From Candidatus Nomurabacteria bacterium (GTDB lineage Bacteria; Patescibacteriota; Patescibacteriia; Magasanikbacterales; UBA922): a DNA stretch of 64,000 bases. The stretch is taken from assembly GCA_020632445.1 (NCBI GenBank), contig JACKFN010000003.1:81118-145117 (forward strand), read 5' to 3'. The notes under the pieces were generated by a model. That model saw nothing but the letters and a program-made list of their open reading frames with translations, searched no databases and had not been told where the DNA came from. The position numbers and the translations under genes are program-made. Below are positions 4,441-62,232 of the stretch, piece by piece. Position 1 is the stretch's first letter. Every line of letters starts with the position of its first letter.

Positions 4441-4444
4441 ATTT

Positions 4445-8987: not shown

Positions 8988-8995
8988 TGTTTCGG

Positions 8996-9181
8996 TTACG
9001 ACTGATCTTCAATGAAAGCAAGAATGTCTTCTTTCTTGTATCTTCGATCTCCTCGAGAGCCAAACCGTATGGCTTTGAGTTTTCCCTCGTTATCCCACTT
9101 TCGTAGTGTATTGGGATGACAGTTCAATATCTCACATGCCTCCTTTAGCGTGAGCAATTGAGGCATTTTTTGCATGTCCAT
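8996..9181 (-). CDS. Excisionase/AlpA-type helix-turn-helix DNA-binding protein
   Basis: 61 aa; LTLKEACEILNCHPNTLRKWDNEGKL matches the excisionase-family HTH pattern. Confidence 0.55.
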   Translation of the reverse strand: MDMQKMPQLLTLKEACEILNCHPNTLRKWDNEGKLKAIRFGSRGDRRYKKEDILAFIEDQS

Positions 9182-9262
9182 AGCTCTTGATTTTGTACTT
9201 AATATAAGTTACCATTAGTATACACGAAATTACTATTACTCTCAAATTAGCATGACAATTAT

Positions 9263-10411
9263 ATGGACAGAATGCCAAACTTTTTGCGGAAGCTGTCGCC
9301 AGCAATGCTGAACGCCTACTGCAAACATAAAAATATAGACTTTACTGTCTCTCCCAAAGAGAAGGATACGGAAAAGATCAAACAGAGCTTCATAGAATGT
9401 TGGGAAAAGCTGGAATATACGGAACGCAATGAGGTTGAAATAGACTTTGGTGCGACCGAGGAGCTCATGTCTAACACAGGATGTGGGCTGCTCCATGATC
9501 TTGCCGTACAAAAGAAAAAAACAATCCCAAAAGAATGGGATAACATGACTACGGCTGACAAGGCTTTGTGGTTTTACCTAAACGATCCTGAAACATTTCG
9601 AGAAGGAGCACTAAGATATGTAGTAGAAAACGCACAAGGTTGGATGACATTCCGAGCTGATGCAGAGTTACCTACAGCAGATTTGGATGCCCGTGTTGGA
9701 AAACTGCAACAACAAATGCAGAAGTATCTCTATGCAAAAGAGAGACGAGGGGCACTTTGTAAAATAGACATGATACAGAAAGACAACTATGTCTGTTTTG
9801 TTGCAAATCCTCAGAATTACCCAAAACGAGAGCCCGAATATGATGAGAAAACAAAGGAGCTCAACAAGGCAACCAGCATAAAACCAATCTATCAACTTTA
9901 CTTCCTATATCGATCGGACGACCAAACATTGAGCATTAAATCTCGATATAGAAAAAACAAGAAGCAAGATTTGGCAAATATGTTTGGTAATCATGTGCTC
10001 AACGTACCCCTTCTGGGAGATAAAATCATCTCGTACAATCTTGATCTGTTGTTAGACCCAGAATTCGAAATGAAAAAGCCACTTGGTCTCGAAAAAGTAG
10101 TACTCAAAAGAGTGCGTCTCAAATCTCGCAGGAACTTCAAACATTCTATCCAGTTAGACCTTGGTACATTAGACGATGGTATAGAACCTCTACGAGAACA
10201 ATTACGTTTGTATAACATAAACCCAACATTCTTTGAGGTGGCTACAGCTACCATGACGTTTTACTTCCAACGACCGAAAGACCCCCGATACAAAAATCAG
10301 AGGTTCGACGTAACTGTTGAGCTGTCAAAACCTCACAGATGTACCTTCAAAAATCGTGATCTGGATGATAAAGCAAGAACAGTATTACATGATTGGGGTA
10401 TTGTGAATTGA
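9263..10411 (+). CDS. Hypothetical protein of unknown function (382 aa), first gene of a two-gene cassette
   Basis: Long ORF with no recognisable motifs; a 2-bp gap to the next gene suggests translational coupling. Confidence 0.5.
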   Translation: MDRMPNFLRKLSPAMLNAYCKHKNIDFTVSPKEKDTEKIKQSFIECWEKLEYTERNEVEIDFGATEELMSNTGCGLLHDLAVQKKKTIPKEWDNMTTADKALWFYLNDPETFREGALRYVVENAQGWMTFRADAELPTADLDARVGKLQQQMQKYLYAKERRGALCKIDMIQKDNYVCFVANPQNYPKREPEYDEKTKELNKATSIKPIYQLYFLYRSDDQTLSIKSRYRKNKKQDLANMFGNHVLNVPLLGDKIISYNLDLLLDPEFEMKKPLGLEKVVLKRVRLKSRRNFKHSIQLDLGTLDDGIEPLREQLRLYNINPTFFEVATATMTFYFQRPKDPRYKNQRFDVTVELSKPHRCTFKNRDLDDKARTVLHDWGIVN

Positions 10412-10412
10412 T

Positions 10413-11351
10413 ATGGTTTTTTCATCCGCAATATCTCTCTTGCACCACAATGAACGTATCCCTCGAGAAGAAATTGAAAAGTATATAAGCAAGGGCATAA
10501 TTGCACATTTGCGAAAGCAGGGTGTATTAAAAGAGAGCGACACACTGTCACACATAACTTGCCAAGAGTGCAACGAATGTCTGTGTGAGGTGGAATCTTT
10601 TGATGGTGGCGTTCGAGCATATTGTGAAACATATAACAGTTTTTACGATCTACCAGAGTCATATTCGCAACCCTCATACAAATTCGACACAAACGGCTTC
10701 CTATCTCTTCTCAAAGAACAATTCGATATCAAAGGTTCGACTGAAAAAATAAGCACCAATTTTTTTAACATCGGTTATCTCAGTACAGATCATACACACA
10801 TATTTTTTTCCTTTGATGATGACCAAAACAACCACTCGCAAGATATAGACCGAATCCTTGGATCAAACGGGAAAGCACTTATTGTTGTACCATTTTCTGC
10901 TTCGCAGTATACGTATACGGGAAACCGTGTTCGACCAGTAAGCTTGGACAGTGTTGGAAAATTTACTTCTCGTGCAATATCTTGGGATAAGGAAGAGTTT
11001 GAGTACATTGTAGAAAGTACCTTTCGTAGTGTTGAGTTTACTCTGCATGGAGAGCTCAAACACAACGGGGTAATTTTACGAGACTATGCCTCGGGGACGA
11101 ACCAATATGCTTTCCTCAAGACATTGTTTGATAGCTTCGGTAGAACGGTTACAAATGAAACGCTTTTTGATAATGCAAAAAAGACAGTACCAAACTTTAG
11201 ATATACCAGTCCGTCATCTTTCGCAGAGAAAACAAAGTCTAACATCTGCAATAAAGACAAGGAAACCAAAGATATTGTGGAAAAGATCATTGTTCCTGCG
11301 AGTGCAGCGGGATCAAAAAAAGGCTACAGAATGACAAATCCTCAAGCATAA
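10413..11351 (+). CDS. Hypothetical protein (312 aa) with an N-terminal Cys cluster (CQECNECLC...C), second gene of the cassette
   Basis: ORF; only a putative zinc-ribbon-like Cys cluster is recognisable. Confidence 0.5.
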   Translation: MVFSSAISLLHHNERIPREEIEKYISKGIIAHLRKQGVLKESDTLSHITCQECNECLCEVESFDGGVRAYCETYNSFYDLPESYSQPSYKFDTNGFLSLLKEQFDIKGSTEKISTNFFNIGYLSTDHTHIFFSFDDDQNNHSQDIDRILGSNGKALIVVPFSASQYTYTGNRVRPVSLDSVGKFTSRAISWDKEEFEYIVESTFRSVEFTLHGELKHNGVILRDYASGTNQYAFLKTLFDSFGRTVTNETLFDNAKKTVPNFRYTSPSSFAEKTKSNICNKDKETKDIVEKIIVPASAAGSKKGYRMTNPQA

Positions 11352-11352
11352 T

Positions 11353-11392
11353 GTCAGCAATCCGTCAGCGATTGTCAGCAAAATGTCCGCAA
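11353..11392 (+). promoter_or_regulatory. Iteron-like array: four direct repeats GTC(A/C)GC(A/G)A starting at 11353, 11364, 11374 and 11385 (10-11 bp phasing)
   Basis: Read directly in the sequence; begins 2 bp after the stop of the upstream gene. Confidence 0.55.
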
Positions 11393-11411
11393 CAACCTAC
11401 CTTAGAATAGA

Positions 11412-11435
11412 ATCACGGTAACCCGTGATTTTTCG
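11412..11435 (+). terminator. Hairpin ATCACGG-TAAC-CCGTGAT followed by TTTTCG; terminator-like or operator inverted repeat
   Basis: Perfect 7-bp inverted repeat plus T-run; the motif aaCCGTGAT recurs at 11455-11463. Confidence 0.4.
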
Positions 11436-11488
11436 TTGCAACGTCAAACAAAGGAAACCGTGATGTTTATCAATTAACATTACGACTT

Positions 11489-11764
11489 ATGACTAAAGAA
11501 CATTCCTACGTTCCCTTTCTTGAGGACTACCCAAATCCATTTTCAAGCTACGACATTGGCATGTGTGCGGGCTTGGTAAGCGTTGGCTACCAGCTTCTAC
11601 ACATAGACAAGTCAAAGGGAGCAAAAGCACTTTTCCTCTTTGAAAACAGCGATGAGATTGTTGAATCCGCTCAACAATACTGGCGAGGAGAATTGCAGGT
11701 CGATGCACTTGCGTACTTCAACGCACTCAAGAATATCAAGAACCAGTTGTACTCACAGCGATAG
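11489..11764 (+). CDS. Hypothetical small protein (91 aa)
   Basis: ORF only; lies within the element between the iteron array and the primase. Confidence 0.3.
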   Translation: MTKEHSYVPFLEDYPNPFSSYDIGMCAGLVSVGYQLLHIDKSKGAKALFLFENSDEIVESAQQYWRGELQVDALAYFNALKNIKNQLYSQR

Positions 11765-11933
11765 ATATGCTCTCTGACGAAATGGTCGAGAAATTTCGAG
11801 AGCTGTATCGCAAACGCTATGGCGAAGACATCTCAAAAGAAGATGCACTCATGCAAGGTACAGCTCTCCTGCGGATGATGAAAGTGATCTATCGACCACT
11901 CCCAAAAGGAGAAAAAAAACATACTCAATAAAC

Positions 11934-12170
11934 ATGAACATTATGAAATCTATTGAAAGACGGTTTAACCGAATCTCAAAAAAATACACTGGCTGGAGCT
12001 CATATCTCTGCTTTGTAGAAGCGATAACAGGACAATACTTTCGTCGTCGGACGATCCAGTATTGGTTCAATAAGCTGGTAGACAAAGACGACTACAGCAA
12101 AGGTGACAAACAACAAATCATTAACTTCCTCGAGCATCTATCAAATGAGCGTGAGGAAAGCACGAAATAA
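11934..12170 (+). CDS. Hypothetical small protein (78 aa); starts ATGAACATTATG
   Basis: ORF; carries the recurrent start-site motif. Confidence 0.3.
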   Translation: MNIMKSIERRFNRISKKYTGWSSYLCFVEAITGQYFRRRTIQYWFNKLVDKDDYSKGDKQQIINFLEHLSNEREESTK

Positions 12171-12248
12171 GGCGTAAATTGCCCTCTGCGTGCTTTTCTT
12201 GAGCCCAGAGGGCATAGATGCCATGACGATTAACATTAACCAAATACT

Positions 12249-14438
12249 ATGGAATTTCAGACAATTACCATTAGCCAATATCTCAAAGAAAAAGGGATGG
12301 AATTTGTGGAGCGAAATGGTGAGATAGTAACACGATGCGTATTCAATGACTGCGACGCTGATAGCAGAGCAAACGAGGCTCACCTATATTTTGATGCAGA
12401 GACAGGACAGTACGATTGCAAAAAATGTGGTGAACAAGGAAACATAATTACACTCGCAAGACATCTTGGTGACACACTTGAAGATGTAGCAAAAGAAAAA
12501 ACACAGCCCAGTAAAAAACGGAAGAAAAACGGTATAACCATTACGGACGTTGAAAGATGTCACAAAGCTCTTCCAGATCGAATACGAGAGTACCTGCACG
12601 ATCGAGGAATTACAGACGAGCTTATCTCGCACTTCAAACTAGGCTGGGGTGAATTTTATGGTTCACAATGGATCACCATACCTATCAAAGATATTGATGG
12701 GAATTTTTCGTTCTTCAAATTACGGCGTGACCCTGACCAAGAAACCGAAGACGGAAAATATCGGTTCTACCCTGCTGGAAGTAAAGCAACGCTCTTTGGC
12801 TGGGATATGCTCAAAGGTAACACGGACATGATCGTGATCTGTGAGGGAGAATTCGATGCAATACTTCTCACCAGCCTTGGTATCCCCACACTAACATCTA
12901 CCGCAGGGGCAGGAACATTCAAAGACGAGTGGATACCGCATTTGAAAAACTTGAAAAACATTCACATTTGCTTTGACAAAGATGACGCTGGAGCGAAAGG
13001 AGTAGAAAAGCTGGTAGCACAGCTCGATACGCATTTGAGTAAGACCGCAATACACCAGATAACATTGCCAGATCGAATGACTGACGGAAAGGACGTTACT
13101 GATTACATAACCAAGCACAACGGAAACCCAGATGAACTACTGAAAGAATGCTCAAAACAAGTTGCAGGAAGACAGCCCATTGATACGTCTAAATTCAAAC
13201 CACTCACCTCAGATGATGTTGTTCGAGTGCTCGGGCTGACAATCAAGAAAGATGAAGAGAACAAGCTCATCACGTTTCTTTGTGCATTGTCTGCATATAC
13301 TGAGCAATCCCAATTCAATCTGAGCTTCAATGCTCCGTCTTCCACGGGAAAAAGTTTTATCCCTATGGAAGTATCGACACTCTTTCCTACAGAAGACGTA
13401 ATGAAGCTCGGTGACTGCTCACCAAAGGCGTTTTTTCACGAACAAGGAGAATACGACAAAGAGAGCAACACGATGCTTGTTGATCTATCGAGAAAGATAC
13501 TTATATTCCTTGATCAGCCACACAATAGCTTGCTCGAACGTCTTCGTTCACTCTTATCTCACGATCAGAAAGAGATGATCTCAAAGATTACAGACAAGAA
13601 CAGAAAAGGTGGAAACCAGACAAAGACAGTTATCCTTCGTGGGTATCCTGCTGTTATCTTTTGTAGTGCTGGATTGAAGATAGACGAACAAGAAAGTACT
13701 CGGTTTATTCTTCTCTCCCCACAAACGAGCCAAGAGAAACTGCGGTTTTCAATCCAAGAAAAGATCAAGAAGGAGTCTGACTACGAAACGTATCGAGATG
13801 ATCTCAATGCTAATCCAGAACGAGCACTACTCAAAGAGCGAATTGAGGCAATCAAAGATGAGGCGATTGATGAAATACGCATTGAAAACCCAGAATTGAT
13901 AGAACAAGAATTTTTCTCTAAACGTGCAAAGCTGAAGCCTCGTCACCAACGTGACATTGGTCGGCTGATGGGGCTTACAAAGATATTTGCTCTCCTGAAT
14001 GTCTGGTTTCGAGAACGTGAAGGCTCAACAATCGTGGCAACAAAAGAAGACTTTGAAGAAGCACTCAAGCTCTGGAACAAGATATCCGAAAGCCAAGAAT
14101 ACAATCTTCCTCCATACGTGTATGAGCTATACAAGGATGTTATTGTCCCAGCATACGATGAAAAAAATGCGTTTGGGCTTGCTGCTGATCCTTCAGGAAT
14201 TACAAGAAAAGAGATACTGCAAAAGCACTATGAGGTATATGGACGTATGGTACAGGACTGGCAAATGAGACAGCAGATCATACCGATGCTAGAAACGGCA
14301 GGTCTCATATCACAAGACCCTGATCCTGATGACAAACGGCGTATTCTTATTACCCCTACAGACAAACTCACTACTTCCACAGACTCTGAAAAAGATATAG
14401 TGAGCGACACTGGGGACGTAGGTACAATTTCCCTGTAA
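12249..14438 (+). CDS. Phage/plasmid-type DNA primase: CHC2 zinc finger plus TOPRIM plus C-terminal P-loop domain
   Basis: CVFNDCDADSR...CKKCG zinc finger; TOPRIM MIVICEGEFDAILL; Walker-A-like APSSTGKSF. Confidence 0.75.
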   Translation: MEFQTITISQYLKEKGMEFVERNGEIVTRCVFNDCDADSRANEAHLYFDAETGQYDCKKCGEQGNIITLARHLGDTLEDVAKEKTQPSKKRKKNGITITDVERCHKALPDRIREYLHDRGITDELISHFKLGWGEFYGSQWITIPIKDIDGNFSFFKLRRDPDQETEDGKYRFYPAGSKATLFGWDMLKGNTDMIVICEGEFDAILLTSLGIPTLTSTAGAGTFKDEWIPHLKNLKNIHICFDKDDAGAKGVEKLVAQLDTHLSKTAIHQITLPDRMTDGKDVTDYITKHNGNPDELLKECSKQVAGRQPIDTSKFKPLTSDDVVRVLGLTIKKDEENKLITFLCALSAYTEQSQFNLSFNAPSSTGKSFIPMEVSTLFPTEDVMKLGDCSPKAFFHEQGEYDKESNTMLVDLSRKILIFLDQPHNSLLERLRSLLSHDQKEMISKITDKNRKGGNQTKTVILRGYPAVIFCSAGLKIDEQESTRFILLSPQTSQEKLRFSIQEKIKKESDYETYRDDLNANPERALLKERIEAIKDEAIDEIRIENPELIEQEFFSKRAKLKPRHQRDIGRLMGLTKIFALLNVWFREREGSTIVATKEDFEEALKLWNKISESQEYNLPPYVYELYKDVIVPAYDEKNAFGLAADPSGITRKEILQKHYEVYGRMVQDWQMRQQIIPMLETAGLISQDPDPDDKRRILITPTDKLTTSTDSEKDIVSDTGDVGTISL

Positions 14439-14541
14439 AAACAAGTAATTAACTGGACAAGGTTCTGTAAATACTCCCTAGGGAAAGGAGCTTATTCTCT
14501 AATGATTTCGGTAAATTCAGAACCTGATAAAACCTTACATT

Positions 14542-15171
14542 ATGGGAAGATACTACTGGAACAAAAAAGACGAAGCAGATGACTGCAAAAAAATAGAAAT
14601 ATGGACACTCAAGAAATGGGGCTATCTTGATACGTCCTTTCGTTCGGGAACAATCACATGGACGCACGGATACAGCGGAAACAAAAGTAGTGTGGGTATA
14701 CAAAGTGTTATGTGGAAGGACGAGGGGCAGTATATCCGCATACACTATACCCAGACAGACTGGCGTACCGAGGAAAAGACAGACTTCGACTACCAAATAC
14801 CGCTCACCACAACAGAATGTCACTTCGGAGGTATACGCTACTGGTTTCGCTGTCCGTGGTACAAAAATGGTGTCTATTGTGGCAGACGTGTTGGTGTGAT
14901 CTACAAAAACGGAGATTACTTTGCCTGTAGACACTGTTACGAGCTGTCATACGCCAGCAGAAACGAGAACCGAAAACATGCGTTGTCTGGACTCGGCAGA
15001 ATGCTTGATCTGGAACGAAAAATAGAAAAGCTCCAAGAAGAAATAACCACTCCATTCTACAATGGACGACCAACAAGAAAATATCGAAGGCTTATAGAGC
15101 TAAAAAGGCAATACTATGGCTTTGATGCAGAAAAAGTCTTGAGAGATATGGATAGAATGCTTGGTTCGTGA
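14542..15171 (+). CDS. Hypothetical zinc-ribbon protein (209 aa)
   Basis: Cys cluster CHFGGIRYWFRCPWYKNGVYCGRRV...CRHC; located immediately upstream of the recombinase. Confidence 0.4.
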   Translation: MGRYYWNKKDEADDCKKIEIWTLKKWGYLDTSFRSGTITWTHGYSGNKSSVGIQSVMWKDEGQYIRIHYTQTDWRTEEKTDFDYQIPLTTTECHFGGIRYWFRCPWYKNGVYCGRRVGVIYKNGDYFACRHCYELSYASRNENRKHALSGLGRMLDLERKIEKLQEEITTPFYNGRPTRKYRRLIELKRQYYGFDAEKVLRDMDRMLGS

Positions 15172-15313
15172 TATAATTACATCGCTTACCCAATGTACAA
15201 TTTTTGTCAAAAGATTTTTTATTTGTTGCCAGTAAGGGGCAGTCCTCCAACAAATATGTCTTTTGGCATGTGCGTTGGGTAAGCAGGGCTGTCCCTTTTT
15301 GTAACCAAAAAAT

Positions 15314-16918
15314 ATGGATTACCATGACAATAAACAATACAAATACTTTCTCTATGCGAGAAAATCATCGGAAAGCGAAGACCGACAAGTCCAATCAATC
15401 GATGATCAAACTGATCGGCTAAAAGAGCTGGCACAAACGCTCGGTATTACCATAAAACAGATATTTACTGAGGCAAAATCAGCGAAGAAGCCAAACAATA
15501 GACCAGTCTTCACAGAAATGATGGAACGGATCGAAGCTGGAGAAGCTGATGGGATACTATGTTGGCAGATCAATCGTCTTTCACGCAATCCAATTGATAG
15601 TGCTCAGATACAGTGGCTACTACAGAAAAAAGTGCTCAAGTCTATCCAAACCATTGATCGTGAATACAGACCAGAAGACAATGTGCTTCTCTTCAATGTT
15701 GAAAGTGGAATGGCGAATCAGTTTATCCTTGATCTCAGCAAGAATGTAAAACGTGGAAACTTGTGCAAGGTAAAAAATGGGTGGAAACCCGGTCTTGCAC
15801 CTATTGGATATTTGAATGAACTGGAAAACCATACCATAATCCCTGACCCTGAACGATTTGATCTCATACGTAGAGCATGGGACTACATGCTGACAGGAAA
15901 CTATACCGTTCCCCAAATACACAAGATGCTCAATGACGACTGGGGCTTCCGAACAAAGAAAAGAAAACGATCTGGAGGTAAACCAGTAGCACTGAGCAGT
16001 ATGTACAAGATATTCAGCAATATCTTCTATGCTGGTGTACTTCTTTACGATGGCAAGGAGTATGCAGGAAAACACAAAACAATGATCACGCTTGAAGAGT
16101 ATGACCAAGTGCAGGTTATTCTCGGAAAAAAAGGAAAACCAAGACCAAAGACGTATACCTTTGCCTTTACTGGCATGATTAGATGTGGTGAGTGTGGCTG
16201 TAGTATCACTGCGGAAAAGAAGAAAAAGTTTATCAAGAGCGAGCAAGAACTTCGCTACTACACGTACTATCACTGCACTCGTAGAAAACGAGAAGTAAAT
16301 TGCTCGCAAAGAAAATCGATCAGTGAGACAACCTTAGAAAACCTGATATTAGAAGAAGTCGGCAAGCTGACCATTCTTCCAGAGTTTTTTGATTGGGCTA
16401 TGGAAGCACTGAACCAAGATAATGATAATGAGATTGTGGATCGAACCAAGATATACGAAATGCAACACCAGTCTCTGACGAAAACACAAAAAGAGCTCGA
16501 TAATCTCACCAAAATGAGATACAGAGAGCTGATTGACGATGAAATGTTTATCAAAGAGAGCGAGGAGCTCAAAGCAAAAATCAAAAAGCTACAGCAAGAA
16601 CTTCGGGAAACTGAGAAACGTGCAGAAGATTGGCTCGAGCTCACAGAAAAGGCATTTCACTTTGCCAGATACGCACGAGAACACTTTGATGGCGGTAGTA
16701 TTGAGGAAAAAAAGGAAGTACTGAGCGGATTAGGTTCGAACTTTTTGCTAAAAGACCAAAAACTAGATATTTCCCTTCACAGTTACTTTGAACCGATAAA
16801 AAACGGGTATAAAACGCTTGAAGCTGAGTATCTAGCGTTAGAACCAAACAAATTTGCCTCAACAAAAGTAAAAACAGAGGCTTTGACCTCTGTCATTACA
16901 CGTTGGCAGGCGAGGTAG
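15314..16918 (+). CDS. Large serine recombinase (resolvase catalytic domain, recombinase domain, zinc ribbon, coiled coil); putative integrase of the element
   Basis: YARKSSESEDRQVQSIDDQ catalytic region; CGECGCS...HCTRRKREVNC zinc ribbon; 3' end overlaps the tRNA-Trp 3' end. Confidence 0.8.
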   Translation: MDYHDNKQYKYFLYARKSSESEDRQVQSIDDQTDRLKELAQTLGITIKQIFTEAKSAKKPNNRPVFTEMMERIEAGEADGILCWQINRLSRNPIDSAQIQWLLQKKVLKSIQTIDREYRPEDNVLLFNVESGMANQFILDLSKNVKRGNLCKVKNGWKPGLAPIGYLNELENHTIIPDPERFDLIRRAWDYMLTGNYTVPQIHKMLNDDWGFRTKKRKRSGGKPVALSSMYKIFSNIFYAGVLLYDGKEYAGKHKTMITLEEYDQVQVILGKKGKPRPKTYTFAFTGMIRCGECGCSITAEKKKKFIKSEQELRYYTYYHCTRRKREVNCSQRKSISETTLENLILEEVGKLTILPEFFDWAMEALNQDNDNEIVDRTKIYEMQHQSLTKTQKELDNLTKMRYRELIDDEMFIKESEELKAKIKKLQQELRETEKRAEDWLELTEKAFHFARYAREHFDGGSIEEKKEVLSGLGSNFLLKDQKLDISLHSYFEPIKNGYKTLEAEYLALEPNKFASTKVKTEALTSVITRWQAR

Positions 16919-16977
16919 GAATCGAACCCACGCAATTGGTTTTGGAGACCAATGTACTACCACTATACGACTCGCCC
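16905..16977 (-). tRNA. tRNA-Trp (anticodon CCA), 73 nt with encoded CCA
   Basis: The reverse complement folds as a cloverleaf: acceptor stem GGGCGAG/CTCGCCT, anticodon loop CTCCAAA, T-loop GGTTCGATTCC. Confidence 0.75.
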
Positions 16978-17235: not shown

Positions 17236-17400
17236 ACTCGTTTATTTACAAAGTAGCACCAGTATACTATACTTGCTCTGAGCTGTCAAGGGGATAAAAG
17301 ACCCTGTTTTTTCACATATTTTAGCGAAAAACATACTTTTGTAAGAGAGTCTTGAAAAACAGACAAAAATCTTGTAAAATAGCTGTATTAACCGAAACCT

Positions 17401-27273: not shown

Positions 27274-28053
27274 ATGTTGAGCGAAAAAATTACATTGATG
27301 AAAATGTGTTATACACTCGGATCAAACCCATATATGTGGGGAAAACTTTTGTTGTTTTCGATTTGGGTTCGGGCTTTTAAACATTGGCAGGCTTCTGGGT
27401 ATGGGTGGAAGTTTTCAGTCAAAAAGTTTGGAAAAGTGGTCCAGCTGTATCTTAAGGATTTGTCGGACTATTTTGTCTTCAAAGAACTTTTTTTTGAAGA
27501 CGATTATGGTCATGATTTTGAGGTTGGTGACGAGTGTATCATCGATATCGGTGCGAACAATGGGCTTAGTGCTTTGTATTTTTCATTGAAATACCCAAAG
27601 AGTAAAATCTATGCATGCGAGCCAGATCCACGGACTTTCATGCGTCTAGTGGCCAATGCGCTTGGCAGTGAGCACATCATACCGCTCCAGCTTGCTGTCA
27701 GTGATCAGAATGGTTTTTTGACGTTTTATAGCACACCAAGGGCTATATCATCTTCGCAGGTCAAACGAAATGATCAGGCTCGTGAAGTATCTGTTCCGTC
27801 ACAAACACTTGATACACTTTTGGAAAGCATAGGAGAAAGGGTCGGTTTGTTGAAGATCGATGTGGAAGGGGCTGAACAGCCAATTGTGGAGGCATGGATA
27901 AACAAAGACAGGGTAAACAATATAGTGGGGGAGTTCCACCAGGACTTGGTGAACGTAGACAAGGAGACCTTTTTCAGCTGGCTTGACACCTTTGAGCTTG
28001 AGACTTTTGAAAGAGGGCCTAAACGAACCGTATTTTATGGAAAAACAAGATAA
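27274..28053 (+). CDS. FkbM-family methyltransferase
   Basis: IIDIGANNGLSALYF motif typical of the FkbM family. Confidence 0.65.
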   Translation: MLSEKITLMKMCYTLGSNPYMWGKLLLFSIWVRAFKHWQASGYGWKFSVKKFGKVVQLYLKDLSDYFVFKELFFEDDYGHDFEVGDECIIDIGANNGLSALYFSLKYPKSKIYACEPDPRTFMRLVANALGSEHIIPLQLAVSDQNGFLTFYSTPRAISSSQVKRNDQAREVSVPSQTLDTLLESIGERVGLLKIDVEGAEQPIVEAWINKDRVNNIVGEFHQDLVNVDKETFFSWLDTFELETFERGPKRTVFYGKTR

Positions 28054-28879
28054 AAAAATGAAGATTCTTTTCATCCTTGGGCTGAGTCACAGTGGTTCGA
28101 CTTTTTTGGACATGCTGCTTAGTCACTATACTGGCGCTATTGGTCTTGGGGAGCTTCATGCTGTTGCTGATGAAAAGACAACAAATACCGAACATACGTT
28201 TGATATCTGTTCTTGTGGAGAAAAGATGAAGGCGTGTTCATTTTGGAAGAAATTGGATGGATTCCACGCCTCTGGGAGTGACGAAGATAGATATAAGGCT
28301 TATTATCAAAAGTTTATTGAAATGGCATCTTTAGAAGGAAAAGACATCATCATTGATTCTTCAAAGAAGACCTCCACGTTAAATGAGGTATTAAAGCTTC
28401 AAGACGCTGGGATAGCTGAGGTTAAGGTCATTTACATTGTAAAGGATCTTCGTTCATATTTGCAGTCCATGCATAGTTACTATAAAAGACAAAGCAGAAG
28501 ATGGCGACCGTATTGGCACACGGCATGGAGATGGAACAAGAAACTTACACGCATGGAAAAAAATCTCTTAGATAAGAAAATTCCACATATACAAATAAGT
28601 TATGAAAAGTTGTGTTTTGAAACTTCTGCGGTGTTAGGTGAAATTTTTGAGTTTTCAGGATTAGATAATTCGCAATTCTCATTTGAAAATGGTATGTGTT
28701 CGCATGTTGCCTACGGAAATAGAACAAAGAAGAGTTTTCAGGGTGTGCAAGATATTCGCTACTCGAGTGAGTGGATGTACAATTTTTGGCTTAATGTGTG
28801 TGCACTTTTGGCATTTCCGCTGTACAAAAAAAGCCAGGATAGGTTTGCTACAAAAATAATGTATAGAGAAGATGAATAG
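28037..28879 (+). CDS. Sulfotransferase-family protein (PAPS-dependent), apparently intact; ORF track start 27983, ATG 28037 or 28058 more likely
   Basis: N-terminal P-loop-like 5'-PSB motif ILFILGLSHSGSTFL; located in the PAPS-synthesis neighbourhood. Confidence 0.5.
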   Translation: MEKQDKKMKILFILGLSHSGSTFLDMLLSHYTGAIGLGELHAVADEKTTNTEHTFDICSCGEKMKACSFWKKLDGFHASGSDEDRYKAYYQKFIEMASLEGKDIIIDSSKKTSTLNEVLKLQDAGIAEVKVIYIVKDLRSYLQSMHSYYKRQSRRWRPYWHTAWRWNKKLTRMEKNLLDKKIPHIQISYEKLCFETSAVLGEIFEFSGLDNSQFSFENGMCSHVAYGNRTKKSFQGVQDIRYSSEWMYNFWLNVCALLAFPLYKKSQDRFATKIMYREDE

Positions 28880-29675
28880 CCGCATTGAGTATTTTGATGT
28901 TGTTTCGCAGGCGCTCCAAGATGCTGGAAATGCCGTTTTGCATTTTTATGAAAAAGAATATCAGGTACACACCAAGGACGATGGATCCCCTGTAACGCTG
29001 GCGGACAAAGCCTCACATAATATATTGATTGAGCAGTTGTGCGGTACGCAGATACCTGTATATACTGAAGAAAGCGATTCAGTCTATCCACCAGCAGAAA
29101 CGTTTTGGTGTGTTGATCCACTCGATGGTACCAAGGATTTCATACATGCGACGGGTGATTTTAGTATTCTTGTTTCGCTTATTGATAGGAGGCAGCCGAG
29201 TATTGGATTTGTCTATCAGCCAACGACGGGAGATCTTTTTTTTGCTCAACGGGGAAAAGGAGCCTTTGCGCGCAGCGCCAATGGGAATACTGTTTCCATA
29301 CACGCTGATTCACAAGCAACTTTTGCTCAGCAAAAGTTGCTTGTGAGCCGTTTTCATTTGCAAGAATCAGAGACAAAGCTCAAGGATCAGTTGGCCCTTT
29401 TGGGATTTGAACAAAAGGGGAGTTGCGGACTCAAAATGGTCGCGGTAGCACAGGGGAGTGCTCATATATATGTCAATTCCAGTGATAAGACAAGCGAATG
29501 GGATACTGCTGCCGGACAGGTGATATTGCAAGAAGCAGGGGCCGCGCTTACTGATATTGATGGCAATCAATTGATATATGCTAAAGATCAAACAAATAAC
29601 CCGAATGGTATCGTCGCAACAAGTAATTTTGATCACCAAAAAGTACTTGAAAGTTTACAAATTTGTCTAAATTGA
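28872..29675 (+). CDS. cysQ: 3'(2'),5'-bisphosphate nucleotidase (PAP phosphatase, inositol monophosphatase family)
   Basis: WCVDPLDGTKDF and EWDTAAGQVIL motifs. Confidence 0.75.
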   Translation: MNSRIEYFDVVSQALQDAGNAVLHFYEKEYQVHTKDDGSPVTLADKASHNILIEQLCGTQIPVYTEESDSVYPPAETFWCVDPLDGTKDFIHATGDFSILVSLIDRRQPSIGFVYQPTTGDLFFAQRGKGAFARSANGNTVSIHADSQATFAQQKLLVSRFHLQESETKLKDQLALLGFEQKGSCGLKMVAVAQGSAHIYVNSSDKTSEWDTAAGQVILQEAGAALTDIDGNQLIYAKDQTNNPNGIVATSNFDHQKVLESLQICLN

Positions 29676-29708
29676 CATGAGATAAAATGGTTGGTACAAT
29701 AGCCACAC

Positions 29709-30635
29709 TTGCAAAGTGTAGATATGGATGTCTCAAAGTACAATTTAGATTATCTCGATCAGCTTGAGGCTGAGAGTATGCATATTTTTCGTGAATCCGC
29801 AGCGACTTTTCAAAAGCCGGTGCTTTTGTATTCTATTGGAAAAGACTCATCGGTTTTGCTCCATCTGGCGCTTAAGGCTTTTGCTCCTGGGAAGTTGCCT
29901 TTTCCCTTGCTTCATGTGAACACCGGATTTAAGTTTGATGAAATGATTGAATTTCGTGATAAGATCGCTGACCAGTATGGTTTGCAGTTATTCGAGGAGC
30001 AAAACACGGAACCAAAGGCAATGGAATTCACCGCAGAAGATGCCAATTCTGAGCAGTATATCTACTATAAAAAAACAAAGCCACTCGTAGAGGGGCTCAA
30101 AAAACATGGTTTTGATGCTGCATTTGGGGGTGCAAGAAGAGATGAGGAAAAAGCGCGCGCCAAAGAGCGAATATTTTCGCATCGTGATAAAGACAATGTC
30201 TGGAAACCTCGAGCACAAAGGCCGGAGCTATGGCATCTCTACAACCCACTTTTGAAAAGTGGTGAATCTATGCGTGTGTTTCCACTTTCCAACTGGACGG
30301 AACTTGATATCTGGATGTACATCAAGCGAGAGAACATTGATATTGTGCCACTCTATTTTGCGAAAAAACGCGATGTTGTGGTTCGAAACGGCGTCATACT
30401 GCGAGTTGATGAGTTTGTGAAGCCAAAAGAAGGAGAAGAGGTTATTCAGATGGATTGTCGATACCGTACACTTGGATGTTCTCCTTCGACAGGAGCCGTA
30501 CCTTCTACTGCTACAACACTTGACGAGGTGATTGATGAAGTATTCAATGCTGCATGTAGTGAGCGTGAAAATCGCATGATTGATAAAAACTCTGATAGTT
30601 CTATGGAGCAAAAGAAAAAAGAAGGATACTTTTAG
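29709..30635 (+). CDS. cysD: Sulfate adenylyltransferase subunit 2 (PAPS-reductase-like fold)
   Basis: [21 protein letters not shown]-loop; followed by cysN at a 1-bp gap. Confidence 0.8.
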
Positions 30636-30636
30636 T

Positions 30637-32445
30637 ATGAAAGAAATTTTGGAAAGCAAAAAAGAACTCGTTCGTCTGACAACCGCAGGGAGCGTTGATG
30701 ACGGAAAGTCTACACTCATCGGAAGACTTTTGTTTGATTGTGACGCGGTCTACCAAGATCAGCTTGAATCGATAAAAAAGAGCAATGATGGTGAAATTGA
30801 TTTTGCCCTTATTACCGACGGCCTTTCTAGTGAGCGTGAACAAGGGATTACTATTGACGTTGCATATAGATATTTTTCAACAAGAAATAGAAGATTTATT
30901 ATTTCAGATGTTCCCGGACATGAGCAGTACACCAAAAACATGGTTACGGGTGCATCGAATGCTGACATCGCTATTATTTTGATCGATGCCAGAAGAGGAG
31001 TAATGCGCCAGTCAAGACGTCATCTGTGTATCGCTTCACTTTTGCAGATTCCACATGTTTTGGTACTCGTGAACAAAATGGATGCGATTGATTATGATCG
31101 AAAGGCTTTTGAAGATATCCAGAGTGAGCTTTCAGAATTTGCAGCTAAACTTTCTATTAAGGATTTGCAGTTTATTCCAATTTCTGCCCTGAAAGGTGAT
31201 TTTGTAACAAAAAAAAGCGACAACATGTCATGGTATCAAGGGCGTACGCTTCTTGACTATCTTGAAAATGTTCAGATAAATGTCGATAGGAATCTTATCG
31301 ATTTTCGATTTCCTGTTCAGTATGTCCTGCGTCCACATCAGGACTTCCGTGGATATGCAGGTGTCGTAGAAGGTGGAGCGATAAAAACAGGAGAAACCGT
31401 CATGGTGCTCCCAAGTAAAAAGATATCAAAAATAAAGGAGATCTATGTTGGAGATAGAGTCGTTAATGAGTGTTTTTCACCACAATCTGCATTACTCACA
31501 CTCGAAGATGAAATAGATATTGCACGTGGTGACATGTTGGTGAGACCAAACAATGTTCCGCAGAGCAAGAGTGCGTTTGAAGCATATTTGTGTTGGATGG
31601 GAGACGAAAAAATGGAGTTAGGGCATAGGTACTTGGTGAAACAGACAACAAACATGGCAAGTAGCAGGGTTACTGAGCTTAATTACCGTTTGAATGTGGA
31701 AACGTTGCATCGTGAAACCGCAGAGTGCTTTGAGCTCAATGATATCGGAAAGGTGGTTATTCGCACCCAAAAGCCATTATACTTTGATCCCTATAAGCAA
31801 AATCGAAATACTGGTGGGTTTATCTTGATTGATGAAGCCACCAATCAGACAGTTGCTGCAGGCATGATAATCGCGGCGATAAATGAAGACGATGCTGAAG
31901 ACTCAGATTTTCGAGACGTTTCGATGAGGGTACAAAAACCGGCTCCTGTGCTTTGGTTTGAAGGGCTGTCTGGTTCTGGAAAATCGACACTCGCAGACGC
32001 TGTTTATGAGCGGCTGGTTCAAAAAGGAATAGAGTGTAGGAGGCTTGATGGTGACCTTTTGCGTGAACATATTACCGGTGATCTTGGTTTTGGAAAAGAG
32101 GGAAGAGCGAAAAATCTTGAGATTGCCGGGTATCTTGCACAAATGCTTTCGCAGCATGGTGTAGTAGTGCTCTCAACATTTATTACCCCTTATGAAAGTG
32201 TCAGAAGAAGACTCCGTGAGCAAATTGAAAATTTTCAGGAAATTTATGTGAGCACCTCACTTGAGGTATGCGAGCAGCGTGATGTTAAGGGTCTTTACCA
32301 AAAAGCGAGAAAGGGAGAGATTGAGAACTTTACGGGTATTTCTGACGACTTTGAGGTACCAAAAAATCCAGCACTTGTAATTGATACACACAATCAAAAC
32401 CTGGAAGATTGTGCTCAACAGATTGTAAAACATTTTTCTTTATAA
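30637..32445 (+). CDS. cysNC: Bifunctional sulfate adenylyltransferase subunit 1 (GTPase) fused to adenylylsulfate kinase
   Basis: GTPase G1 GSVDDGKSTLIGRLL; C-terminal APS-kinase P-loop FEGLSGSGKSTLADAV; ATG at 30637 with GAAGGA RBS (ORF track starts at 30580). Confidence 0.85.
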   Translation: MKEILESKKELVRLTTAGSVDDGKSTLIGRLLFDCDAVYQDQLESIKKSNDGEIDFALITDGLSSEREQGITIDVAYRYFSTRNRRFIISDVPGHEQYTKNMVTGASNADIAIILIDARRGVMRQSRRHLCIASLLQIPHVLVLVNKMDAIDYDRKAFEDIQSELSEFAAKLSIKDLQFIPISALKGDFVTKKSDNMSWYQGRTLLDYLENVQINVDRNLIDFRFPVQYVLRPHQDFRGYAGVVEGGAIKTGETVMVLPSKKISKIKEIYVGDRVVNECFSPQSALLTLEDEIDIARGDMLVRPNNVPQSKSAFEAYLCWMGDEKMELGHRYLVKQTTNMASSRVTELNYRLNVETLHRETAECFELNDIGKVVIRTQKPLYFDPYKQNRNTGGFILIDEATNQTVAAGMIIAAINEDDAEDSDFRDVSMRVQKPAPVLWFEGLSGSGKSTLADAVYERLVQKGIECRRLDGDLLREHITGDLGFGKEGRAKNLEIAGYLAQMLSQHGVVVLSTFITPYESVRRRLREQIENFQEIYVSTSLEVCEQRDVKGLYQKARKGEIENFTGISDDFEVPKNPALVIDTHNQNLEDCAQQIVKHFSL

Positions 32446-32456
32446 AGTTAGTTTTC

Positions 32457-33265
32457 ATGTTTTTTAAAAAAGTGTACCGTTTCTTTCGAAGAAATAAAAA
32501 TCAATTTCTTACTGATGTTGTTGTTTTTTCATTTCCAAAATCAGGAAGAACGTGGCTTCGAGTAATACTTGCAAAATATTTCTCTCTTTATTATGATGCT
32601 GAATTCCGTTTGAACCTCTATACATTAAAAAATACGCAGGTAAAAAACTTCCTTACATTTTTTTTGACCATGTTATTTCTTCTGAGGATGGTTCTCTTAA
32701 CAAAAAGCTTTTGCGTAAGCGTGCCCGGAAGAAAAGTATTCTTTTGGTAAGAGATCCTCGAGATGTGGTGGTTTCTTACTATTTCCAAATTACTCAGCGA
32801 GAACCCGATGTTAAAAAACTTTATTTCCAGGATAAAGATGTAACCATGAGCGAGTTTATACGGCATGACAAACTCGGTATTGCAAACATTGTGTCATATA
32901 TGAATGTGCTCTATGAAGTGGTTCAAGAAGTAAGAGGAAATGATTTTTTGATAATTTCCTATAGGGACTTAAAGAATAAGCCCTTTGTCACGCTCAAAAA
33001 GCTGTTTGAATACGCCGGTATAACTAATGTCGACAATACGCTTTTACAGTAAGCATACCAATTTTCTACTTTCAATAATATGAAAAAGATGGAGGAAGAA
33101 GGAGAATTTTCTGCCACGATTTTACAGCCACAGGATAAGGATAATCCTGAGACATATAAAGTTCGAAAAGGAAAAGTGGGGGGATATGTTGAGTACTTCA
33201 CGAAGAAAGATCAAGAATTTGCTGCAAGAGAAATTAAAAAGCTCAATCCCACATTTGGTTTTTAG
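32457..33265 (+). pseudogene. Disrupted PAPS-dependent sulfotransferase, split across three ORFs: a -1 frameshift in a T8 tract (32658-32665) and an in-frame TAA (33050-33052)
   Basis: Frame 0 encodes the canonical 5'-PSB FPKSGRTWL; frame 2 continues FDHVISSEDG...LLVRDPRDVVVSYYFQ; after the TAA the same frame continues ...KVRKGKVGGYVEYFT (SULT RKGxxGxW region); a T9 tract would restore the frame. Confidence 0.6.
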
Positions 33266-34500
33266 CGTTTTTTGAGAATATACCAAAAAGCAAAGTATAA
33301 GAATCCATCAGCAATAATTTGCGTTGCCACGATTCCCCAGATTCCGTAATAGTATCCAAGAATAAAGTATAAAAGAATCCGCAGCAAATGTACGGCAGTG
33401 CGTGAGACATAGAGTTCTTTGATGTATTGCTGCGCCTCGAGTGCCTGAGAGAAAAGTGCGCGAAGTTGAAAAACATATCCAAGCGCAAGAATCTGAGTAA
33501 TTTTGATGGCTTCTGGATAGAGTGGATAGATCAGTCGAAAGGCATACGGTATGAGCAAGATGTATCCAAGGATTACAAGGAGGCTGATCATCGATGCCAT
33601 GAAAACTTTTTTAGGAAGAGTCTTTTTGAGAGACTCTTTTGAGTTGGTGCTAAATTTAGGAAGTGCAAGTACTCCAAGCTGGCTAATCGGTGCACCGAGA
33701 ATATTCAATGGGGCATAGGCAATGGAGTAGATGGCAACTTGGATAGGGCCAAGGTAGTGCCAGATCACCAGTTTATCGAGTTCTTGAGCTGCTGAGCCAA
33801 GCAACCTCATCAGGCTCAGATGTTTTCCATAACCAATCATTGATGCTTCGGTTTTGTCATTTTCTACGTAGTGTCTAAGCGTATAGCGATAGGCTATGTA
33901 TTGAGTAACAGCGTTGAGTAACATAAAACCGGCAACCAGCACCACTACGTTATTAGTCATCAAAAGGAGTGCTACAAATCCAATGCAGATGGCAATTTTT
34001 ACCAGTATTTGTAATCGAGTAGAAGCACCAAAGGCTTTTTTTCCTTGAAGAAAATTCTGATAGACACGGAAATTCCGAAAAAAAGGAATGAGAAGGGATC
34101 CAACAACAAAAGCGCTTCCAAGTCGCAGATCTCCTTGCATGAAGTAGTAGGTCGAGATTCCAAGCCCAATAAGTGATCCTACGGTTCCCCATTGCATCAT
34201 GGCACGCAGAGCTGCTCTGACACCTCCTTCATATCCACGTGCAACACTGCGCGCTACTGCAACTGACATGCCTGGAAGAGTTGTGAGATGTAAAAGTGTA
34301 ATGAAAGAAAGGATGTATTTGTAGGTACCAAATGTCTCTCTGGGGAGGAGGTTTGATAGGGCAATGGAAGTAACAAGCGAAGTGAGCGCACCGACAATTC
34401 CATTTGCCATGAGAACACTTCCACCTTTGGCAAGATACACCATATTGGTTTGGGTGTATTTTTCCGTTTTTTTGAGAAGCTCTAAAAGTTTTTGTTTCAT
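33262..34500 (-). CDS. wzx: Polysaccharide flippase (Wzx/MOP superfamily)
   Basis: 412 aa, about 12 predicted TM helices, typical polysaccharide biosynthesis protein profile. Confidence 0.6.
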   Translation of the reverse strand: MKQKLLELLKKTEKYTQTNMVYLAKGGSVLMANGIVGALTSLVTSIALSNLLPRETFGTYKYILSFITLLHLTTLPGMSVAVARSVARGYEGGVRAALRAMMQWGTVGSLIGLGISTYYFMQGDLRLGSAFVVGSLLIPFFRNFRVYQNFLQGKKAFGASTRLQILVKIAICIGFVALLLMTNNVVVLVAGFMLLNAVTQYIAYRYTLRHYVENDKTEASMIGYGKHLSLMRLLGSAAQELDKLVIWHYLGPIQVAIYSIAYAPLNILGAPISQLGVLALPKFSTNSKESLKKTLPKKVFMASMISLLVILGYILLIPYAFRLIYPLYPEAIKITQILALGYVFQLRALFSQALEAQQYIKELYVSRTAVHLLRILLYFILGYYYGIWGIVATQIIADGFLYFAFWYILKKR

Positions 34501-34584
34501 AAAAAATTTACCTTATTATAGCAAGTTTTCTATAAAACGAAAAGTCTTGAAATAAAAAAAACCACTGTTTGTGGAGTTGTGGCG

Positions 34585-34611
34585 GCCGACCTGTGGTAGG
34601 TACAGGTCGGC
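34585..34611 (-). terminator. GC-rich hairpin GCCGACCTGT-ggtaggt-ACAGGTCGGC immediately 3' of the island gene (T-run about 20 nt further on)
   Basis: Perfect 10-bp inverted repeat read directly; non-canonical spacing to the U-tract. Confidence 0.4.
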
Positions 34612-34648
34612 GCCGTTGGTGGGGTAGCTCGCCGTGACGAGTGGCGGA

Positions 34649-37669
<3,021 letters not shown>

Positions 37670-37943
37670 CCGATCTGAACACCATCAACACTTCAAACTT
37701 CATCCCCGACACTCAAAGTGGTGCGTGTAGGGTGATTTCGTATCTGACCTGATTGCCAGAGTAAACGAAACACGCTTGGGGTCCCAGCCCTGCAACCGCC
37801 CTTTTCGCTATGAGCGGAAGGAGCTGGGCAGGCACCAACTGACATTTGATCAGCTTATGCCTGCCTGCAGGGTGGAAAAGTTCAAAGAATTTTGAAATTT
37901 TTTGTAAAGATCCTGTATTGCACGTATTGTACAATAACAGGTA

Positions 37944-37972
37944 ATTATAGCAAAAAATGACGCTTTTGTCAA
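37944..37972 (-). promoter_or_regulatory. Perfect sigma70-consensus promoter on the minus strand (TTGACA-17 bp-TATAAT) reading into the high-GC island
   Basis: Reverse complement of 37967-37972 is TTGACA and of 37944-37949 is TATAAT, with a 17-nt spacer. Confidence 0.5.
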
Positions 37973-37980
37973 GTCCTAAA

Positions 37981-38000
37981 AAGGGCCTTGCAAGGCCCTT
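37981..38000 (-). terminator. Palindromic hairpin AAGGGCCTTG/CAAGGCCCTT 3' of the glycosyltransferase gene, followed on the minus strand by TTTTT and then the -35 box
   Basis: 20-bp perfect palindrome read directly. Confidence 0.45.
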
Positions 38001-38039
38001 CAAAACAACGTTATTTTTTTGCTAAAATGAGGTAATATT

Positions 38040-39170
38040 TCAGCTATATACCTTAAAATACTCTTCGACCATGGTTTGCGAAGAAAAGTGAGTTGAAAAG
38101 GAGAGGTTGGACTGTACAGTGGCACTATACAGGTGCTCATCGTCCAAAAAAGCCTCCAATTTGGTCTTGAAATCCTCAAAATTCTGGCTCGTGTAGAGCT
38201 GGAACAGGTCGTCATTTACTACCTCATGGCTTCCTCCTACATTGCTGGTGAGAATCGGTACACCAGCCTTGAGGGCCTCGACAAGAGTGATAGACAGACC
38301 CTCATAGAGTGATGGAAGTACAAACACATCAAACCCAGGGATGTACTTTGCAGCATCATCAATGTTTTCAATGATGAACACGTGGTCTTCAAGTTTATGA
38401 GCTGCAATGATTTTTTGGTACTTGACTTTCTCTGGACCCGATCCAATCATGACAAAAATCAGACCAGGATTTTTTATTAAAAGTTTTTGAAAGTTATCAA
38501 GAATGAATTCATAATTTTTTGGGTATGCGAGCCTTCCAATGGATCCGAGTATTTTGGCGCGTTCAAAAAAAGCTTTGTCTTTTTTTGTCCACATAGCAAA
38601 GGTTTCCCTTGACTGCAATTTTTTTAAAAAGGTTACCTCTGGCGCATTGTAGATAACATGCTGGCTTTTTGAGAGTCCAATGGAGTGTGCATAGTCTCTG
38701 TTGGTTTTGCTGACAAAGACAGGGGCGTCAACATACGGGAGATAATGTCCAAAAAAGATTTTGAAAAGGATACGTAGCAGTGGTTTTTTGCTGCCTGGGT
38801 CGAGATAGGACAATCCACGAAAGGTAAAAACGGTTTTGATTTTTGGAAAATGCTGTTTGATCACTTTTGCAGCCGGGAGTGTATTGGAGCTATTGAGGTG
38901 AACAACATCAAATGACTCCTTTGCCAAAAAGTTTTTGAATTCTTGGGTGAATGACCGAAGAGAAAGGGGATTGAGGCTTCGCTCAAGGTGCTCAAAAGCA
39001 TGCGCAGCAATACGATTCTTTGCACAGACTTCAGGCAAAAAGTTTCCAGTATTTTTCCCAAAGCCAACAACAACTTCATGGCCCATTGCCTGAAGCCCTT
39101 TGGCAAGGGTAAGCGTCATAGTCTGTGCGCCACCAATTTCTGCTTTGGTGATCAGGAGGAGGATTCTCAT
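38040..39170 (-). CDS. Glycosyltransferase family 4
   Basis: VLPSLYEGLSITLVEALKAGVPILTSNVGG. Confidence 0.7.
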   Translation of the reverse strand: MRILLLITKAEIGGAQTMTLTLAKGLQAMGHEVVVGFGKNTGNFLPEVCAKNRIAAHAFEHLERSLNPLSLRSFTQEFKNFLAKESFDVVHLNSSNTLPAAKVIKQHFPKIKTVFTFRGLSYLDPGSKKPLLRILFKIFFGHYLPYVDAPVFVSKTNRDYAHSIGLSKSQHVIYNAPEVTFLKKLQSRETFAMWTKKDKAFFERAKILGSIGRLAYPKNYEFILDNFQKLLIKNPGLIFVMIGSGPEKVKYQKIIAAHKLEDHVFIIENIDDAAKYIPGFDVFVLPSLYEGLSITLVEALKAGVPILTSNVGGSHEVVNDDLFQLYTSQNFEDFKTKLEAFLDDEHLYSATVQSNLSFSTHFSSQTMVEEYFKVYS

Positions 39171-62203: not shown

Positions 62204-62232
62204 TTGACAGAAATAGGGTATTGGTGTATAAT
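62204..62232 (+). promoter_or_regulatory. Perfect-consensus sigma70 promoter TTGACA-17 bp-TATAAT upstream of rplU (about 80-nt leader)
   Basis: Read directly in the sequence. Confidence 0.55.

Follow-up and report, generated by a model that had tools for sequence, protein, structure and literature searches.

Does the perfect sigma-70 consensus promoter that faces a GC-rich island in the genome of a Candidatus Nomurabacteria bacterium belong to the island gene, or was it captured from the flippase gene on the island's far side? The locus lies in a 64,000-nt stretch of contig JACKFN010000003.1 (forward-strand positions 81,118 to 145,117), hereafter the window, and its parts follow one another on the minus strand: a GT4-family glycosyltransferase gene (GT4), the promoter, the island with its single real gene, and a wzx-type flippase gene. 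An earlier, sequence-only reading of this DNA had taken the island for an insertion between the promoter and wzx, with the island gene transcribed from a strong host promoter and wzx left dependent on read-through. The evidence collected here favours, with a probability of roughly two in three, a dedicated and evolutionarily old promoter-leader-lipoprotein unit, with wzx transcribed mainly from a -10 element of its own.

The promoter, at 37944..37972 on the minus strand, matches the consensus TTGACA-17-TATAAT at 12 of 12 positions, with the -35 hexamer at 37972-37967, a 17-nt spacer and the -10 hexamer at 37949-37944, and a TG at 37952-37951 gives it an extended -10 element, TGCTATAAT; the minus strand around it reads GAAGGGCCTTGCAAGGCCCTTTTTAGGAC TTGACA AAAGCGTCATTTTTTGC TATAAT TACCTG. 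It is the top site of a promoter scan within 30-44 kb, and the window holds only one other perfect TTGACA-17-TATAAT, at 62204-62232, about 80 nt upstream of rplU, the gene for ribosomal protein L21. Sites with at most one mismatch number six in the window against 0.56 expected, a count reached in none of 100 shuffles, and a near-consensus promoter also precedes cysD. Genes that this organism expresses strongly are therefore served by consensus sigma-70 promoters. The textbook promoter of the sequence-only reading was therefore confirmed, as was its position directly after the GT4 terminator and its aim into the island. It appears to be a genuine, strong promoter of the housekeeping type, and we infer its activity and start site, like the function of the leader and the efficiency of the terminators described below, from sequence; transcription is predicted to begin at about 37938-37937. 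Compared with the extended -10 promoters of the E. coli sigma-70 type (TGnTATAAT), it has the same hexamers, the 17-nt spacer, the TG at -15/-14 and an intergenic place after a terminator, facing a gene; its activity in a bacterium of the Candidate Phyla Radiation (CPR) is a prediction. As a kind of element it is ordinary and already known.

Upstream of the promoter, the GT4 gene (38040..39170, minus; Pfam Glycos_transf_1 and Glyco_transf_4) ends in an intrinsic terminator at 37978..38001 (minus), whose hairpin has a stem of 9 bp and a loop of 4 nt and is followed by a U5 tail. Orthologues of GT4 were found in a locus of Candidatus Magasanikbacteria CG11 (L003; 57% identical) and, through a GT4 protein search, in a Logan contig (L073; 59% identical), and in both the terminator hairpin is kept despite different stem sequences. 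Both also carry an orthologous promoter, TTGACA-17-TACAAT at 9740-9768 in the Magasanikbacteria locus and TTGACA-17-TATAGT at 1353-1381 in the Logan contig, each matching the consensus at 11 of 12 positions and each with the TG. Common to the three promoters are an A-rich stretch after the -35 hexamer (TTGACAAAAG) and a T-run before the TG. The motif TAnAATnnCCnGTT was also matched in two further loci (L024 and L026), inside a coding region (the sequence was checked in L026), and these are therefore regarded as chance matches.

The conservation extends well beyond the promoter. In the Magasanikbacteria locus, which was recovered likewise as L004, L020 and L021 and is identical in three assemblies, the gene order is that of the window (S8 peptidase, an unknown gene, Bac_transf, epimerase, ugd, GT4, GC-rich gene, wzx), and GT4 is followed by the terminator, the promoter, a leader of about 285 nt, a Shine-Dalgarno sequence and the ATG (10055) of a GC-rich gene whose protein, P0010, is 50% identical to the island protein. 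The Logan contig shows the same succession of terminator, promoter, leader, GGAGG-ATG and GC-rich gene, and ends inside that gene; overall, leaders in these two genomes measure about 290-310 nt. The three lineages are about equally distant from one another, with GT4 proteins 55-59% identical and the N-terminal part of the island proteins about 45% identical. Every relative with a GT4 of more than 50% identity carries the GC-rich gene behind this promoter at the same site, and no island-free relative with a GT4 above 50% identity was found in GTDB genomes, JGI metagenomes or a set of 5.8 billion proteins. Relatives with a GT4 of 47% identity or less have different gene orders, and those of wzx (40% identity or less) stand in unrelated contexts; in one of them (L074), for example, wzx directly abuts an epimerase gene. 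Because the same order of GT4, promoter, leader and gene recurs in three diverged genomes, the unit is old and shared, and the recent insertion proposed earlier is not borne out. Two independent Logan contigs (both SRR12358676) cover the edges of the island and show that its junctions are real: L001 reaches from GT4 through the terminator and the promoter into the first part of the leader, and L002 from the final 260 nt of the island gene across the 3' hairpins to wzx, with a sequence identical to the window.

Between promoter and island gene lies a structured 5' leader of about 313 nt (37625..37937, minus), non-coding, kept in the three genomes and without an Rfam family. Its fold is far more stable than that of shuffled sequences, with minimum-free-energy z-scores of -5.3 in the window and -6.3 in the Magasanikbacteria locus. 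Alignment and folding of the three leaders with RNAalifold gave 83 consensus pairs with 92.7% of the cells paired, and 22 of these 83 pairs show compensatory double changes, against 3-5 when the 3' partners are slid by 1-3 columns, pair counts that are inflated by the derivation of the structure from the same three sequences. One helix of six pairs covaries at five positions. The core of the leader (37715..37885, minus) comprises a long hairpin, a branched domain and the strongly covarying helix, and a covariance model of it (R1) scores 190.8 bits in the window and 186 bits in the Magasanikbacteria locus; these two sequences are about 75% identical in promoter and core, and pairwise nucleotide identity of the leader across the three genomes is 58-65%. 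The first hairpin (helix 1, eight pairs, 37916..37936, minus; UUAUUGUAC / GUGCAAUA) is 100% paired in all three genomes, with one-sided changes only, and might instead be an inverted repeat of the operator kind directly behind the start site. In all three genomes the structure extends to the conserved Shine-Dalgarno sequence and ATG, and the leader's 5' and 3' ends pair with each other a short way before the ribosome-binding site. A reading of this stretch as mere junction DNA is not supported.

A coding function of the leader was rejected, given that a 1-nt indel throws the small open reading frames of the window and Magasanikbacteria leaders out of any shared frame, and the nucleotides are still conserved beyond it. 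A scan of the window at the gathering thresholds of Rfam 15 returned nothing except tRNA-Trp, and a permissive scan of 37450-38100 gave only noise, with E values of 2.9 or more. No further copy of the leader was found by BLAST or with the covariance model in the window and 46 related loci (520 kb in total), which argues that the leader travels with this gene and not with polysaccharide loci generally. The leader is a candidate new structured RNA with covariation support, and its most likely role is a cis effect on how stable the lipoprotein mRNA is or how well it is translated. It comes from a group, the CPR, in which, to our knowledge, almost no regulatory RNAs are known.

The island gene (34649..37624, minus) has a GC content of 0.69 and encodes a lipoprotein of 991 aa. 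Its likely start is the ATG at 37624, with a Shine-Dalgarno GGAGG (37631..37635, minus) 6 nt upstream, in a context, GGAGGAAACC-ATG, that is the same in the Logan contig, and with a lipoprotein signal peptide ending in LLGAC downstream (MGRKMMAAAVLMVGLLGAC being the N-terminus). This ATG stands 320 nt after the -10 hexamer; the start codon had been put at about 270 nt, a distance that fits the farthest upstream in-frame GTG, at 37669, and not the likelier ATG. It is the only real gene in the GC-rich region, and a plus-strand mirror open reading frame was set aside as a by-product of high GC. That the island gene uses a strong host promoter, as the earlier reading held, is upheld insofar as the promoter is of the host's sigma-70 type, faces the gene and is kept in two other genomes; its activity stays a prediction. 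The promoter very probably drives the GC-rich lipoprotein gene.

On the other side of the island, the claimed stable 3' hairpin (given as 34585-34611) is real and forms a 13-bp stem at 34581..34614 (minus), with a fold z-score of -6.2. It has no adjacent U-run; a U8 tract (34561-34554) follows 20 nt on, behind a hairpin of only 4 bp (CCAC/GUGG; hairpin and U8 together at 34554..34574, minus), which makes a weak terminator-like element below the scan's threshold of five pairs. Termination may therefore be leaky. The wzx gene (33262..34500, minus; Pfam Polysacc_synt, 33% identical to its Magasanikbacteria counterpart) has a perfect TG-extended -10 of its own, TGCTATAAT, which ends 14 nt before the wzx ATG and belongs to a second copy, at 34515..34524 (minus), of the 10-nt sequence TTGCTATAAT that also covers the -10 of the strong promoter; the -35 that goes with it, TTTTCG, is weak. 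In the Magasanikbacteria locus a hairpin, a bidirectional terminator with a 20-bp stem and a promoter-like site matching at 9 of 12 positions (TGTACA-18-TATACT) lie in this order between the island gene and wzx, the promoter-like site immediately in front of wzx, and such a terminator makes a dependence of wzx on read-through doubtful. With its own -10 element in the window and the terminator and promoter-like site in the relative, the proposed dependence of wzx on read-through of the GC-rich gene is weak, and wzx probably has its own start, possibly with some additional read-through.

As a separate observation, wzx is followed in both genomes by an AT-rich stretch of about 800-890 nt without a sizeable open reading frame (window 32446-33261, Magasanikbacteria locus 14192-15078; GC 0.27-0.36), at which the synteny between them ends.

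Taken together, we postulate that the promoter heads a unit made up of the untranslated leader of about 313 nt, the Shine-Dalgarno sequence, the ATG at 37624, the 991-aa lipoprotein and the 3' hairpins with the U8 tract. The GT4 terminator would insulate this unit from upstream transcription, and the common ancestor of at least three CPR lineages would already have had the unit, promoter and leader included, in its place between GT4 and wzx. If the unit was ancestral in place, the promoter would now work as the lipoprotein gene's own, while wzx would be served mainly by its TG-extended -10 and read-through would account for at most part of its expression. Several points weigh against this account. 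Promoter activity, start site and operon structure are predictions drawn from the letters, and the leader's pair counts carry the inflation mentioned above, its structure coming from three sequences. No canonical strong terminator separates the island gene from wzx in the window, and with only a 4-bp hairpin before the U8 tract co-transcription of wzx is possible. The AAGG that follows the wzx-proximal TATAAT could be a ribosome-binding site, so that this stretch would not be part of a promoter. Finally, the 10-bp direct repeat TTGCTATAAT, present at both edges of the island, fits an ancient insertion into a wzx promoter.

The last point leads to the explanation that survives best beside the dedicated unit, namely that the GC-rich gene and part of its leader came from a Myxococcota-like donor and were inserted, in the common ancestor of these CPR lineages, into the -10 region or 5' untranslated region of the ancestral wzx promoter, wzx still depending largely on read-through. 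The repeat TTGCTATAAT occurs only twice in the 64 kb (37953-37944 and 34524-34515), on the same strand and once at each island edge, against 0.12 expected; the copy next to wzx lines up in register with the strong promoter (GACTT..C..-17-TATAAT) but has lost the -35, and joining the two copies would put the consensus promoter directly before wzx. The base composition switches near the predicted start site and again at the U8 tract, GT4, island gene and wzx share one strand, no canonical terminator stands between the last two in the window, and the closest non-CPR homologues are in genomes of 68-71% GC. Against this, both copies are TG-extended -10 elements in which eight of the ten bases are functionally constrained, so that their identity is a coincidence of only about one in 16, and in the Magasanikbacteria locus the repeat is degenerate. 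There, moreover, the terminator with the 20-bp stem and a separate promoter-like site precede wzx, and no island-free relative turned up in the collections searched. A related promoter (TTGACAAAA...GCTAAAATTACCTGTT) was also found in a Falkowbacteria locus (L070) before a different GC-rich MopE gene with no wzx downstream; over GCTAnAATTACCTGTT, 15 of its 16 nt agree with those of the window. An ancient insertion of this kind thus seems unlikely, at somewhat better than one chance in five.

The locus resembles horizontally acquired islands that use a captured host promoter in its composition anomaly, its lone foreign-looking gene, its host-type promoter and the 10-bp edge repeat. It differs from acquired genomic islands in that it does not vary among the known relatives, contains no mobility gene and has no adjacent tRNA, the nearest and only tRNA and a serine recombinase lying about 18-20 kb away.

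A second alternative would have the promoter drive a stand-alone structured small RNA of about 250-300 nt, the lipoprotein gene then depending for its expression on read-through alone or on a different start. Abundant stable RNAs typically have consensus promoters, the leader fold is very stable and covaries, and the leader is better conserved than the synonymous sites of the island gene. Against this, no terminator or U-tract lies between the leader structure and the ATG, the structure runs up to the conserved Shine-Dalgarno sequence and ATG in three genomes, no other promoter-like site is available for the island gene, and within the 520 kb the leader occurs only in front of this gene and matches no Rfam family, all of which renders a small RNA improbable. 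That the locus is an assembly chimera of CPR DNA and the DNA of a GC-rich organism, as the abrupt GC jump of 28 percentage points in a metagenome-assembled genome and the end of contig L001 near the GC transition might suggest, can be rejected as very improbable, because three genomes from different samples share the arrangement with diverged sequences and the Logan contigs cover the junctions, L002 spanning that of island and wzx with identical sequence, and the conserved leader itself bridges the composition switch.

The dedicated unit leaves one feature of the locus to be accounted for, and it is the most surprising one: the persistence of a GC-rich gene. From about 37875 to 34563 the GC content is 64-72%, against about 41% in the flanks and the genome; it is about 0.38 before the island, switches about 70 nt after the predicted transcription start and switches again right at the U8 tract. 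In the island gene, the GC content at third codon positions (GC3) reaches 0.92 in the window (against about 0.40 around it), 0.84 in the Magasanikbacteria locus (10055-12712) and 0.91 in the Logan contig (1670-2149). Flanking genes have values of 0.25-0.44 across the three lineages, with 0.25-0.33 in the Magasanikbacteria locus and 0.34 in the GT4 gene of the Logan contig, and the genomes themselves are put at 0.25-0.45. Between the window and the Magasanikbacteria locus, the synonymous-site divergence of the island gene is near saturation, like that of the flanking genes, and at identical four-fold codons the third positions agree in 0.51 of cases against 0.43 expected from composition. A gene that has long been resident should drift towards the composition of its host (Lawrence & Ochman 1997, as cited in PMC12455944, which offers only general background on horizontal gene transfer in Patescibacteria). 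The island gene has not ameliorated in three lineages, which is the opposite of this expectation. Synonymous sites under selection, GC-biased conversion confined to the locus and repeated replacement from donors are candidate causes; active upkeep could, for example, work through selection on how the mRNA folds or how fast a Cys-rich secreted protein is translated, or through locally biased gene conversion.

The pattern may not be confined to this gene, given that the Falkowbacteria locus L070 (JAZDOE010000023.1) holds, at 2145-10653 of the locus, five consecutive genes for secreted proteins or lipoproteins with GC3 values of 0.70-0.83, the genome as a whole standing at about 0.43. The block includes a MopE-related protein of 1550 aa, adjoins Wzy and GT4 genes and is punctuated by several terminators and near-consensus promoters, which suggests that GC3-rich secreted genes are a wider CPR pattern. 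As a counter-example to compositional amelioration, the island gene bears on the dating of horizontally transferred genes and on whether an island call made from composition can be read as a sign of recency. A bolder proposal, which we put forward tentatively and consider rather less likely than its negation, is that the GC-rich codon use is actively maintained or the locus is a landing site refreshed repeatedly with donor DNA, and that the leader is a regulatory RNA of a new class, which might be a sensor or else an antiterminator also in control of read-through into wzx.

Were the leader an antiterminator, read-through to wzx would be explained, and there are systems with which it can be compared. 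Long structured leaders of polysaccharide operons reportedly give processive antitermination. Examples of processive antitermination are the EAR (eps-associated) RNA of the eps operons of Bacillales, the LoaP-dependent leader hairpins, and RfaH with its ops/JUMPstart element. Here too, a leader of several hundred nucleotides stands in an envelope-polysaccharide cluster, upstream of genes parted by hairpins or terminators. This leader, however, goes with the lipoprotein gene and was not found in the other polysaccharide loci searched, and it has no Rfam match to EAR or to any other family. An RfaH-type element was rejected: the ops sequence GGCGGTAGnnTG does not occur in the leader, its nearest approach being GGCGGTTGCAGG with two mismatches, and two-mismatch matches to ops are at chance level in the window (22 against 25.8 expected). 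No NusG paralogue was identified among the open reading frames scanned with Pfam.

The island protein has MopE-type Cys-rich repeats (PF11617, 130.5 bits, cutoff 27) followed by a C-terminal FGE-sulfatase/C-type-lectin-like domain (PF03781, 125 bits, cutoff 23.3), an architecture that it shares with MopE-related and SUMF1-EgtB-PvdO surface proteins of Myxococcota. The identical database protein, MCB9798597.1, is labelled Candidatus Nomurabacteria by NCBI and lies on a contig of 147.9 kb. The majority of homologues share 30-37% identity with it and carry the names Myxococcota, Planctomycetota or Bradymonadia, and since the two non-CPR homologues that were fetched sit in genomes of 68-71% GC, a GC-rich donor lineage is plausible. 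At 50% identity or more, the subfamily comprises two proteins among the 5.8 billion, both with CPR labels, and nothing was found in the literature on MopE genes or GC-rich genes in CPR. The N-terminal 730 residues of the window and Magasanikbacteria proteins are about 50% identical, and their C-terminal domains (encoded at 34649-35470 and 11900-12712, respectively) do not align (E = 0.04), a mismatch between orthologues that looks like domain replacement. The closest solved structure in the PDB to the C-terminal domain is T. denticola TvpA (E = 8e-16), a variable protein of a diversity-generating retroelement. The C-type-lectin/FGE-like domain is shared with such proteins; a role as retroelement target is not supported within the window, as the rest of the 64 kb has no template-repeat-like copy of 34649-35000, and the larger open reading frames scanned with Pfam showed no reverse transcriptase.

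The unit stands within an envelope-polysaccharide cluster that occupies 17-48 kb of the window and contains Wzy_C, several GT4 genes, a deacetylase, methyltransferases, a sulfotransferase, CysQ, CysD, CysNC, UDP-glucose dehydrogenase, an epimerase and Bac_transf. At 27983-32445, the sulfotransferase, a CysQ-like phosphatase, CysD and a fused CysN/CysC adjoin glycosyltransferases, which implies synthesis of 3'-phosphoadenosine-5'-phosphosulfate for a sulfated envelope polysaccharide. A secreted Cys-rich lipoprotein encoded in such a cluster is a plausible player in host attachment of these putative episymbionts, and single surface-protein genes of CPR bacteria seem to be set off as insulated cassettes by textbook sigma-70 promoters and intrinsic terminators.

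Some minor observations concern other parts of the data. The last 17 nt of the Logan contig L001 (3969-3985) differ from window positions 37853-37837 at three sites in the long leader hairpin, one turning a U-A pair into U-G and two lying in the loop; they suggest a second strain in the sample, which may explain why the contig breaks there. A promoter matching at 11 of 12 positions, TTGACA-17-TATACT (17261-17289, minus), lies about 280 nt upstream of tRNA-Trp (16904-16977, minus) on the same strand. The end of a gene for a large serine recombinase (15314-16918) overlaps this tRNA, and the gene belongs to a series of plus-strand genes at 9263-16977 that encode unknown proteins and a Toprim-domain protein (12249-14438), a block that is possibly an integrated mobile element. 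Elsewhere, at 4910-8987, the window carries a Type III restriction-modification pair, made up of a ResIII helicase-like subunit and an N6/N4 DNA methylase.

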